Positions 41,730 to 48,549 of a DNA stretch of 64,000 nucleotides are shown in pieces. Every line of letters begins with the position of its first letter. Positions within the stretch are counted from its first letter, which is position 1. The stretch lies in the sequence record PP355091.1; one strand, 5' to 3'. This stretch comes from Escherichia phage 235Ecol030PP. The notes beneath the pieces were generated by a model. The model ran no database searches and was not told where the DNA came from. It was given only the letters and a program-made list of their open reading frames with translations. Made by a program: the position numbers and the translations under genes.

Positions 41730-42818
41730 CGTATGTTCGATTGAGCTCGCTAATTCTCAACCCGTTCTCTTATGAACTGCTACATATTACTATGCAGACC
41801 AGACTATATCACAATCCCAGAGGGATTCTCCCCATTTCGAGTCGCTTGACCCTACGTCCGAAGACTAGTCGTTGAACCTTGCTTTGCAATTGTCGCCGTG
41901 CCATCGTTTATATGTTGATGGTGATAAATCTTTCTTATCACAATATGGACAATTCAATTGAATTCTATTTGGATTTAATTTACATCTGTCATTATGTTTT
42001 AGATAAAATCCAGGACCTTTACCAATGTGACCGCAGAAATCACATGTGATTTCTTTTTGTGCAGGATGGGTCCCGTTCTTAACCATTTCTAATGTTTTTG
42101 CTGATGTTCTTTTCTTATGGTCTTCTGACAAGAAATGATGCGAACCGTCATTTACCCGTTTTGATTGAGTTTCTGACTGCATTTTACCACCGCAAAATAC
42201 ATGAGTACCTTCTTTTATAGCTGCAATATTGCGTTCTTTAACTTTTGCAATATGCTCAGCTTGTTGAAAATTATGTATACCTAATGCAACTCTATTTAAA
42301 TTAGATTTACGCTGTATTTCACCGTCTAAAAGATGAAATGTACCATTTTCTATCTTAGATTTAATAGAGGCAATATTTTTAGCTCGTACTTCAGGAATAT
42401 TAAAAATCTGGATTTCTCTAGATTTTGCGGCTTTAGAAGCTAATTCAGAAATTTCTTCAGGAGAATATTTCATTCTAAGCTTTATAGCATGACAAGCCTG
42501 GTAATCTTTTTGAGCTAAATGTATATCATAATGTTCCTGTATAGAAAGGCACATCAAATTATCTAAATCATTATTTTCACGGTTACCGTCTTTATGATGG
42601 ATTTCGTATGTTCTTCCATCAGAATCTTTAGGTATAGGTCCGTTAGCATCTATCCAAATTTTTCTATAGTTCAATTGTGCATCCTCTTAAAAGTATAATC
42701 ATATTCATATTATACTAATTAAAGGTGCAAGCAAAACCTTGGCTGCTAGTTTTCCATAAAGGACTTTCCAGCAATTAAAGGAGTTTTCGATAAACGTTAC
42801 CGTTTAAAGGCGCATTTT
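41730..42818 (-). mobile_element. group I self-splicing intron in nrdB (1089 nt) carrying a homing endonuclease ORF
   Basis: Interrupts conserved R2 motif; 5' junction GCGT|AAAATGCGCC allows P1 pairing GCGU/GCGC with G.U; 3' end ...GAACATACG parallels td intron end ...GAACATAATG. Confidence 0.82.
41865..42674 (-). CDS. I-TevIII: intron-encoded HNH homing endonuclease, full length
   Basis: 269 aa; HNH motif EIHHKDGNRENNDLDNL; C-terminal Cys/His zinc-finger-like CDFCGH...CPYCDKK; apparent TTG start 7 nt after GAGGA. Confidence 0.8.
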   Translation of the reverse strand: MNYRKIWIDANGPIPKDSDGRTYEIHHKDGNRENNDLDNLMCLSIQEHYDIHLAQKDYQACHAIKLRMKYSPEEISELASKAAKSREIQIFNIPEVRAKNIASIKSKIENGTFHLLDGEIQRKSNLNRVALGIHNFQQAEHIAKVKERNIAAIKEGTHVFCGGKMQSETQSKRVNDGSHHFLSEDHKKRTSAKTLEMVKNGTHPAQKEITCDFCGHIGKGPGFYLKHNDRCKLNPNRIQLNCPYCDKKDLSPSTYKRWHGDNCKARFND

Positions 42819-43494: not shown

Positions 43495-43545
43495 AATTTT
43501 TCCTCTTAGTTAATAGATAGTGACTCGTCCATGAGTCAAATTATA

Positions 43546-45810: not shown

Positions 45811-46127
45811 AAGTCCTCAACTTGAAAATCGTCTTTAAACAATCGGTTAACTATATGAGCTATTATATCACCATGACACGGCTTTGGTTTACATGTGCAT
45901 CCTAGCCTCATTCCACGTAAAGGCTCTAAATGTGCTTTAGTTATTTCTCCGGATTTAATTCGACGTATAAAATCTTTTTTGAATAATTCAATGGCAGCCT
46001 CCCGGCTGCCAGCATCTTTACCGACGTAATTCCCCCAAAATGTACCACGGTGAATATTAACATCAAAGTCGGATTTGTATTTATTCACTACCCGGCATAG
46101 ACGGCCCGCGCGGTGATAATTCGGCAT
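45801..46127 (-). CDS. hypothetical 108-aa protein with Cys/His cluster (position of T4 nrdA.1)
   Basis: ATG start; [12 protein letters not shown] motif. Confidence 0.5.
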
Positions 46128-46344
46128 ATTGTTTTTCCGTTAAAACAGTAATATCGTAGTAACAGTCAGAAGAAGTTTTAACTGTGGAAATTTTATTATC
46201 AAAATACTCACGAGTCATTTTATGAGTATAATATTTTTTGCCATAAATGATAATAGGCTGATTTGGTCCTGGAACTTCTAACTCGCTTGGGTTAGGAAGT
46301 GTAAAAAGAACGGCACCAGAAGTATCTTTAAATCGTAAAATCAT
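46081..46344 (-). CDS. hypothetical 87-aa protein (position of T4 nrdA.2)
   Basis: ATG overlaps td stop (ATGA). Confidence 0.5.
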
Positions 46345-46652
46345 ATTGCCATTTTCCCTTTAATTGCTGGATGCGATTCATAATTTTCAAGGATAAAATC
46401 TTTCGGTTTCATGTATTCAGTTAACCAGTAAAGCTGTGTTTCGGTGTCACAATTTCCAAACTCTATAGGCCAATCAATTTTAAGTTCACACAGTTCTTTA
46501 GGCTCACGACGTAAAATTTCTTTACATTGTTCTACGTGATTCATATAGATATGAGTATTACCACCGGAAAATATCAAATCTCCCGGAATAAGATTACACA
46601 TCTTAGCTACAATATGAACTAACGTAGCATATGATGCAATATTAAATGGAAG
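46341..46652 (-). CDS. td: thymidylate synthase, exon 2
   Basis: Begins [25 protein letters not shown] after intron terminal G (46653); 103 codons. Confidence 0.9.
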
Positions 46653-46971
46653 CATTATGTTCAGATAAGGTCGTTAATCTTACCCCGGAATTATATCCAG
46701 CTGCATGTCACCATGCAGATCAGACTATATCTTCAACTTGTTAAAGCAAGTTGTCTATCGTTTCGAGTCACTTGACCCTACTCCCCAAAGGGATAGTCGT
46801 TAGGCATTTATGTAGAACCAATTCCATTATCAGATTTTACACGGTAAGTAACTAATCCTGATGAAATTATTAAAGGGTAGTCCTACAATTTAGCACGGGA
46901 TTGTCTACTAGAGAGGTTCCCCGTTTAGATAGATTACAAGTATAAGTCACCTTATACTCAGGCCTCAATTA
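46653..46971 (-). ncRNA. td group I intron, ORF-less (319 nt)
   Basis: 5' end TAATTGAGGCCTGAGTATAAGGTGACTTATAC and 3' end ...GATTAACGACCTTATCTGAACATAATG match remembered T4 td intron ends; no room for an I-TevI ORF. Confidence 0.88.
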
Positions 46972-47519
46972 ACCCAAGAAAACATCTACTGATCGTTGAT
47001 ACCACTGCAAATCCAAATAACCATTACGCACATTAAACTGATAGAACATATGACAAGGTGGTAATGCCATATATTTAAGTTCAGCTGGATTCCACGCAGA
47101 AACAATTTGACGCCTATCATTTGGCAGTTTTTTAATACGATCAATAACTTCTATAATTTGATCTACACCACCAAAATCACGCCACTGTTTTCCATAAATT
47201 GGACCAAGTTCACCGCTATGGTATCCTAAATCTTTTGCTTGATTTTCGTAATTTTCATCCCAAACTGTTTTGCCTTGGATTAACGAATCATGTTGAATTA
47301 ATCGCAAATCATTGACATTTGTGCTTCCCGATAAAAACCAAAGCAGCTCAGCAATGCAAGCTTTCCAGGCGAGCTTCTTAGTTGTTACTGCAGGAAAACC
47401 TTTAGTTAAATCCCAGCGTAATTTAGTACCGAACAAAGCAATTGTTCCTGTGCCTGTTCGGTCATCGGTTTCGTAGCCATTTTCCAGGATATCTTTAATT
47501 AAAAATTGGTATTGTTTCA

Positions 47520-47520
<1 letters not shown>
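46972..47520 (-). CDS. td: thymidylate synthase, exon 1
   Basis: Start set to ATG 47520 (MKQYQ...; track start is TTG); 183 codons ending ...VFLG; 183+103 = 286 aa as T4 TS. Confidence 0.9.

Positions 47521-48549
<1,029 letters not shown>

Follow-up and report, generated by a model that had tools for sequence, protein, structure and literature searches.

Introduction

The td intron of phage T4 is 1016 nt long (annotated T4 record OZ209023.1) and carries the gene for the homing endonuclease I-TevI at intron nt 132–869, the last 20 nt of this ORF contributing to the P6a, P6 and P7 elements of the ribozyme (PMC3073962). An engineered td intron without the loop-6 ORF (pTZ18U/tdP6-delta-2) splices in vitro and serves as a standard substrate, according to PMC1851640, which cites Salvo, Coetzee & Belfort 1990. 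The decay of an endonuclease gene within a phage intron has been established for I-TevIII in the nrdB intron of T4 (Eddy & Gold 1991, cited in PMC2993671 and PMC1865063), and the literature places a free-standing HNH endonuclease gene, mobE, between nrdA and nrdB in the same phage. For a natural td intron with I-TevI deleted, no published description was found in the literature searched, the matches being reviews on engineered or other introns. The four td records deposited from Sandegren & Sjoberg 2004 (RB3, U5, T6 and TuIa) all have introns of 1016 nt in GenBank, so that this survey was apparently without an I-TevI-deleted td intron.

Here we describe the td intron of Escherichia phage 235Ecol030PP, contained in a 64-kb stretch of DNA that was analysed as a whole and is called the window below. 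With a probability of about 0.9, we read it as a T4-type td group I intron that has lost its homing endonuclease gene.

A 319-nt intron at the td insertion site

The td gene lies on the minus strand, and the junction sequences quoted in the sequence-only reading of this DNA are reverse complements of the window. The gene is divided as follows.

46972..47520, minus strand: td exon 1, 549 nt, codons 1–183, with the ATG at 47520
46653..46971, minus strand: group I (td) intron without a homing endonuclease gene, 319 nt, recognized by Rfam RF00028, T4 alignment and folding
46341..46652, minus strand: td exon 2, 312 nt including the stop, codons 184–286

Exon 1 starts with ATGAAACAATACCAA (reverse complement) and ends in ...TTCTTGGGT at 46972. 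The intron opens with TAATTGAGGCCTGAG... at 46971 and closes with ...CTGAACATAATG at 46653, its first three bases (46971..46969) being an in-frame TAA, and exon 2 runs from CTTCCATTTAAT at 46652 to the stop at 46341. Translation of the 549-nt and 312-nt exons, once joined, gave 286 aa and a stop, which agrees with the spliced product proposed in the sequence-only reading and with the 286 aa of T4 thymidylate synthase. Exon 1 shows 95.6% identity to T4 and 98.2% to C2-3 and Paracelsus. There is a recurrent annotation gap in these genomes, which give td as two separate ‘thymidylate synthase’ CDSs without an intron feature.

Screening of the window with Rfam returned RF00028 as the sole family above threshold in the 64 kb, at 46981..46701 (minus strand), covering model positions 1–253 of 253 with 73.8 bits (gathering score 50) and an E value of 7.7e-17; the conserved P3–P9 core is thus recovered above threshold. 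The insertion site within td is that of T4, and the retained parts of the intron are 99.0% identical to T4 over nt 1–105 and 97.7% over the 3′ 214 nt, placing it in the T4 td lineage. The earlier proposals that 319 nt separate the td junctions (46971..46653), that both intron ends match T4 and that the T4 intron is about 1 kb long were all confirmed, the junction sequences being identical in the two phages and the T4 intron, at 1016 nt, not equally short.

The deletion junction and the I-TevI relic

Alignment to the T4 td intron, as proposed in the sequence-only reading, mapped the endpoints of the missing segment and divided the intron into the following parts (a slash marks the breakpoint).

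46867..46971, minus strand: intron 5′ segment, equal to T4 nt 1–105, with the P1 3′ strand/IGS, the 5′ strands of P2, P3, P4, P5, P6 and P6a, and a 12-nt I-TevI leader
46866..46868, minus strand: deletion junction, between TTTAATAA/AT and TTTAAAA/TTTC
46800..46867, minus strand: I-TevI 3′-end relic, codons 224–245 and TAA, 68 nt, found by tblastn with T4 I-TevI
46653..46799, minus strand: intron 3′ core and periphery, with P7, P7.1, P7.2, P3′, P8, P7′, P9, P9.1, P9.2 and the terminal G (46653)

The intron corresponds to T4 nt 1–105 joined to nt 802–1016, minus one base at T4 nt 840. Relative to T4, 696 nt (intron nt 106–801) are absent, with a 2-nt ambiguity, as the AA at 46868..46867 is assignable to either flank (microhomology). 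Lost with this segment are the ATG, codons 1–223 and 26 nt of leader ahead of the gene, among them the RBS region. Both breakpoints lie in short A/T-rich imperfect direct repeats (5′ CCTTTAATAA/AT, 3′ CATTTTAAAA/TTTC), which at the sequence level are the signature of slippage or illegitimate recombination.

With T4 I-TevI as the query, tblastn matched residues 224–236 at 46867..46829 and residues 238–245 at 46826..46803, both at 100%. Between them one A has been lost (AAA to AA) at codon K237 (46828..46827), a frameshift seen only in this window. An intact I-TevI, taken as 245 aa with the GIY-YIG domain, the linker/zinc finger, the DNA-binding domain and its own expression signals, is not present: only residues 224–245 were detectable, in frameshifted form, and the deletion has taken the ATG, the RBS and the promoter region. 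The relic (46867..46800) is that of a degenerate homing endonuclease gene which is found at full length in 187 records, and its last ∼20 nt also serve as the P6a 3′ strand, P6 and the start of P7.

The relic differs from T4 by three substitutions (46862, 46859 and 46844), all synonymous in the I-TevI frame. These, together with 46878 G>A, the single change in the 5′ segment, all occur in the intact I-TevI allele of Mosigvirus G2469 (88% aa identity to T4 I-TevI), although few sites are informative as to the parent allele. Because they are found in this intact allele, the differences of the relic from T4 predate the deletion; being synonymous as well, they show that the relic evolved as coding sequence and was truncated afterwards. 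The descent of the short intron, by deletion, from an I-TevI-bearing td intron is therefore supported by sequence comparison, and the earlier view that I-TevI has been lost from td gains support from relic codons 224–245, the 12-nt leader and the repeat junction.

Mosaic td context and possible mobility

The window tracks C2-3 through the intron. Exon 2 is identical to C2-3 over nt 1–140 and identical to Paracelsus over nt 163–312, its distal part having only ∼65% nt identity to the T4/C2-3 type, with the crossover from C2-3-like to Paracelsus-like sequence at exon 2 nt ∼124–162 (about 46529–46491). Given this switch, the deletion allele is present in at least two td backgrounds. The mosaic context fits recombination or co-conversion and falls short of proof for homing in trans. 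In the distal part of exon 2 (window 46341–46512, minus strand), which is identical to Paracelsus, thymidylate synthase residues 241–265 are wholly unlike T4, which reads VISGLPYKFRYLSTKEQLKYVLKLR; two deeply diverged alleles of the td C-terminus are in circulation.

In Mosigvirus G2469, Marfavirus EI and Gelderlandvirus SEA1 the intron is about 89–98% identical to the window, exon 1 being only 71–80% identical. In EI and G2469, changes in the exon go together with changes in the internal guide sequence (TTAGGT with GCCTGGG or GCCTAGG). These comparisons point to horizontal transfer of the intron across genera, ORF-less forms included.

The intron might, beyond this, be mobilized in trans, by a free-standing endonuclease of the same genome or by I-TevI from a co-infecting phage, and be kept as a td vaccination against I-TevI. 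T4-like phages offer documented cases of homing in trans by introns that are defunct or have no ORF (PMC2790892, PMC3984707), mobE and the T4 nrdB intron being a comparable case, and such a process would suit both the occurrence of the same deletion allele in different flanking contexts and td introns that are at least 95% identical across genera with exons 71–80% identical. However, no endonuclease gene flanks td, the small ORF upstream has no nuclease signature, and tblastn with T4 I-TevI found no second I-TevI-like sequence in the 64-kb window; moreover, these phages recombine rampantly, and the mosaicism is explained equally well by ordinary homologous recombination. We regard mobilization in trans as possible, on balance doubtful.

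The upstream ORF (47521–47726, minus strand) encodes 68 aa and lies between frd and td, which in T4 overlap directly. It is common to C2-3 and Paracelsus (99%) and matches phrog_9550, a family of unknown function; a Pfam search of it gave no match. As a candidate trans-acting endonuclease it was rejected, since it has no Pfam match and belongs to a PHROG of unknown function only. RB3 and 215Ecol030PP have a different ORF, of 115 aa, at the same spot, and small insertions seem to gather at the frd–td junction as at a hot spot. On the other side of the gene, the td stop overlaps the start of a DUF5496 gene (nrdA.2 homologue, 46081–46344) at 46341–46344, as in Paracelsus, and a spacer of 20–23 nt separates the two genes in T4 and C2-3.

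Ribozyme core and predicted splicing

The 3′ core has two changes from T4, both at unpaired or joining positions. One, 46733 G>A, lies where J8/7 begins and matches the A of the Rfam consensus, and the other, 46720 C>A, is directly 3′ of P7. The single-sequence fold (−85 kcal/mol, z = −3.1) yielded P2, P3, P4, P5, P6, P6a, P7.1, P7.2, P8, P9, P9.1 and P9.2, and the same helices were obtained in a consensus fold of six natural short td introns. In these folds the relic forms an extra hairpin stacked on a P6a stem of 9–10 bp. Likewise, P1 can form between exon CUUGGGU and intron GCCUGAG (RNAalifold columns 5–9 with 16–20), the last base of exon 1, T at 46972, providing the splice-site U of the U·G pair at the junction, and the 3′ end of the intron, ...CAUAAUG at 46653, supplies the terminal omega-G. 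The 20 ORF-terminal nt needed for P6a, P6 and P7 are retained. As the core is near-identical to T4 and engineered ORF-less td introns splice, splicing with a guanosine cofactor has very likely been retained.

td is dispensable in thyA+ hosts, and an intact reading frame is therefore weaker functional evidence here than in an essential gene. This non-essentiality is what would favour a splicing-defective intron in a decaying td pseudogene, with the host supplying thymidylate synthase. Such decay is very unlikely, as the two intact exons encode 286 aa, the core hardly differs from that of T4, laboratory deletions of the loop-6 ORF splice, and at least 16 genomes maintain the allele together with intact exons.

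Distribution of short td introns

A td intron of 320 nt with the same deletion was found in 16 INPHARED records, in each case as a one-piece alignment of the 319-nt query with 98.1–99.4% identity. The class includes C2-3, Shinka, 101112UKE3-1, PYps55T, MLP2, UPWr_E2, SYGD1, U115 and ESh30, and also HP3 and its derivatives, L14, Pinarejo and Elenatom, from Escherichia, Shigella and Yersinia hosts in several countries. From its own class the window intron is set apart by one more deleted base and one C/T difference. The best database match to the window as a whole is about 96% over 24 kb, and an exact search of IMG/VR for the 26-nt deletion junction gave 0 matches. Other natural td introns are also short.

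L005 1201–1645, G28 class: td intron of ∼445 nt, with a 570-nt in-frame deletion between CATTTTAAA repeats that leaves a 55-aa mini-ORF
L006 1201–1515, Klebsiella phage EI: td intron of 315 nt, with a deletion between TGA(A/T)AAG(C/T)GGAAT repeats at the start codon and codon 236
L003 1501–1762, 215Ecol030PP class: td intron of 262 nt
L007 1201–1454 and L008 1201–1450, CJY920 class and Salmonella phage SEA1: td introns of 254 and 250 nt, with a different 4-bp P6a hairpin

The deletion of the G28 class ends, on its 3′ side, in the same repeat as that of the window. Since their endpoints differ, the forms other than the 320-nt class would be independent events. Megablast placed td exon 1 in 548 records, I-TevI at ≥80% length in 187 and short td introns in about 36, all of them rough counts that include duplicates. 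Judged from these sequences, natural I-TevI-less td introns appear to make up an allelic series with five or more independent forms, found in about 36 of the ∼220 records that have a td intron. The unusualness implied in the sequence-only reading was thus overrated, the deletion being found in 16 phage records beside several independent short forms.

The hairpin of the 254/250-nt introns is GUUC-UUUU/GAAA-GAAC, and these forms could either descend from before the invasion or be deletions that were later remodelled. An ORF-less state is considered the original one of group I introns (PMC3073962), and the existence of compact td introns of 250–254 nt with a simple 4-bp P6a hairpin (CJY920, SEA1) agrees with the idea that the window intron, too, is ancestrally ORF-less and was never invaded, the T4 form being an insertion into something like it. 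Against this, 68 nt are colinear with I-TevI codons 224–245, of which codons 224–236 lie far outside the 20 nt that the ribozyme requires; the differences of the relic from T4 are purely synonymous, a signature of coding constraint; and the 12-nt I-TevI leader is kept at a junction that shows repeat-mediated deletion. On the relic codons, the leader and the junction we reject an ancestral ORF-less origin for this allele as extremely improbable. A collapsed or mis-joined region mimicking a deletion deserves almost no credence and was likewise rejected: the 1-nt loss in the A-run (46828..46827), seen in the window only, could be a homopolymer error, but 16 independent records, which come from several countries and hosts, share the exact junction of the 696-nt deletion, which is therefore not an assembly artefact.

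The nrdB intron and I-TevIII

The second intron considered lies in nrdB.

41865..42674, minus strand: full-length I-TevIII ORF in the nrdB intron, 269 aa (810 nt), between two nrdB exon ORFs

This I-TevIII is identical to that of RB3 at 268 of 269 positions. The full-length family phrog_12324 covers residues 1–269, whereas the family of the 97-aa T4 relic covers only 173–269. The claims that nrdB keeps a full endonuclease and that the states of td and nrdB are the reverse of T4 both stand on this evidence. The sole change from RB3, D23Y, is immediately upstream of the EIHHKDGNRENN HNH motif. At the gathering threshold Rfam did not detect the nrdB intron, because the 810-nt ORF splits it; a permissive search gave a sub-threshold group I match to its 3′ part (41780..42020, 33.9 bits). 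The nrdA–nrdB gap (43495–43545) is only 51 nt long, and mobE, present there in RB3, is absent.

Discussion

The sequence shows that the short td intron arose by one 696-bp deletion between the short A/T-rich imperfect repeats TTTAATAA and TTTAAAA, the former just upstream of the I-TevI promoter/RBS region and the latter at codon 222–223. This left the last 22 codons as a dead relic, from which one more base was lost later in the window. The RNA is predicted to take up the fold of the T4 td ribozyme, in which the relic would lengthen the P6a hairpin and be dispensable, and to self-splice by the usual guanosine-initiated, two-step transesterification; if the intron does self-splice, a normal 286-aa thymidylate synthase is to be expected from the transcript. 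The intron would no longer be able to drive its own homing. As the I-TevI recognition site is still split by the intron, the allele is expected to be immune to I-TevI cutting, and its spread would be passive only, through ordinary recombination or, where a co-infecting phage brings I-TevI, through serving as the template for repair. The immunity and the trans-mobilization are inferred from the known T4 system (PMC2988022, PMC3984707).

The window intron is a non-autonomous and, as judged from its sequence, almost certainly splicing-competent derivative of the T4 td intron. Group I introns in which the homing endonuclease gene has degenerated are a well-known kind; this member is new, widely shared and previously unremarked. 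As a clean natural case whose endpoints are mapped, it illustrates, in the mobile intron that has been studied best, the step at which a homing endonuclease degenerates in the course of its life cycle. With the td endonuclease lost here and the nrdB endonuclease kept, the laboratory strain of T4 proves not to be representative. The understanding of the system is unchanged by the finding. What is modestly novel is that short td introns form a natural allelic series and that they may have spread as ‘vaccinated’ alleles free of the endonuclease. A bolder, rather improbable combination would have introns without an endonuclease gene favoured as ‘vaccines’ (td being protected, the cost of the endonuclease and its interference with splicing being spared, and spread being provided by I-TevI in trans) and, at the same time, the compact 250–254-nt forms, with their different P6a hairpin, representing the td intron as it was before the invasion.

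The closest described relative is the T4 td intron with I-TevI (1016 nt, group IA2). The gene and the insertion site, after ...TTCTTGGGT, are the same, the first 93 nt of the window intron are identical, the 147-nt 3′ core is identical but for two substitutions, and the P1–P9.2 architecture is common to both. However, the T4 intron is self-mobile, whereas the window intron, without T4 nt 106–801, is predicted not to be; missing from it are the I-TevI promoter/operator region, the RBS hairpin and codons 1–223. The engineered introns tdP6-delta-2 and td-delta-1-3 resemble it in that the loop-6 ORF is gone and P6/P6a and the core are kept. Their endpoints differ, and the natural allele has ∼50 extra nt of ORF tail that extend the P6a hairpin.

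The T4 nrdB intron with its truncated I-TevIII is likewise a natural deletion that left a C-terminal relic in a still-functional group I intron (PMC2993671, PMC1865063), and the two relics represent the same stage of the homing-endonuclease life cycle. They differ in intron, gene and endonuclease family (HNH in nrdB, GIY-YIG in td), and the roles are swapped, I-TevIII being intact in the window. Moreover, the T4 nrdB relic is still an ORF of 97 aa, whereas the td relic of the window consists of 22 codons without a start.
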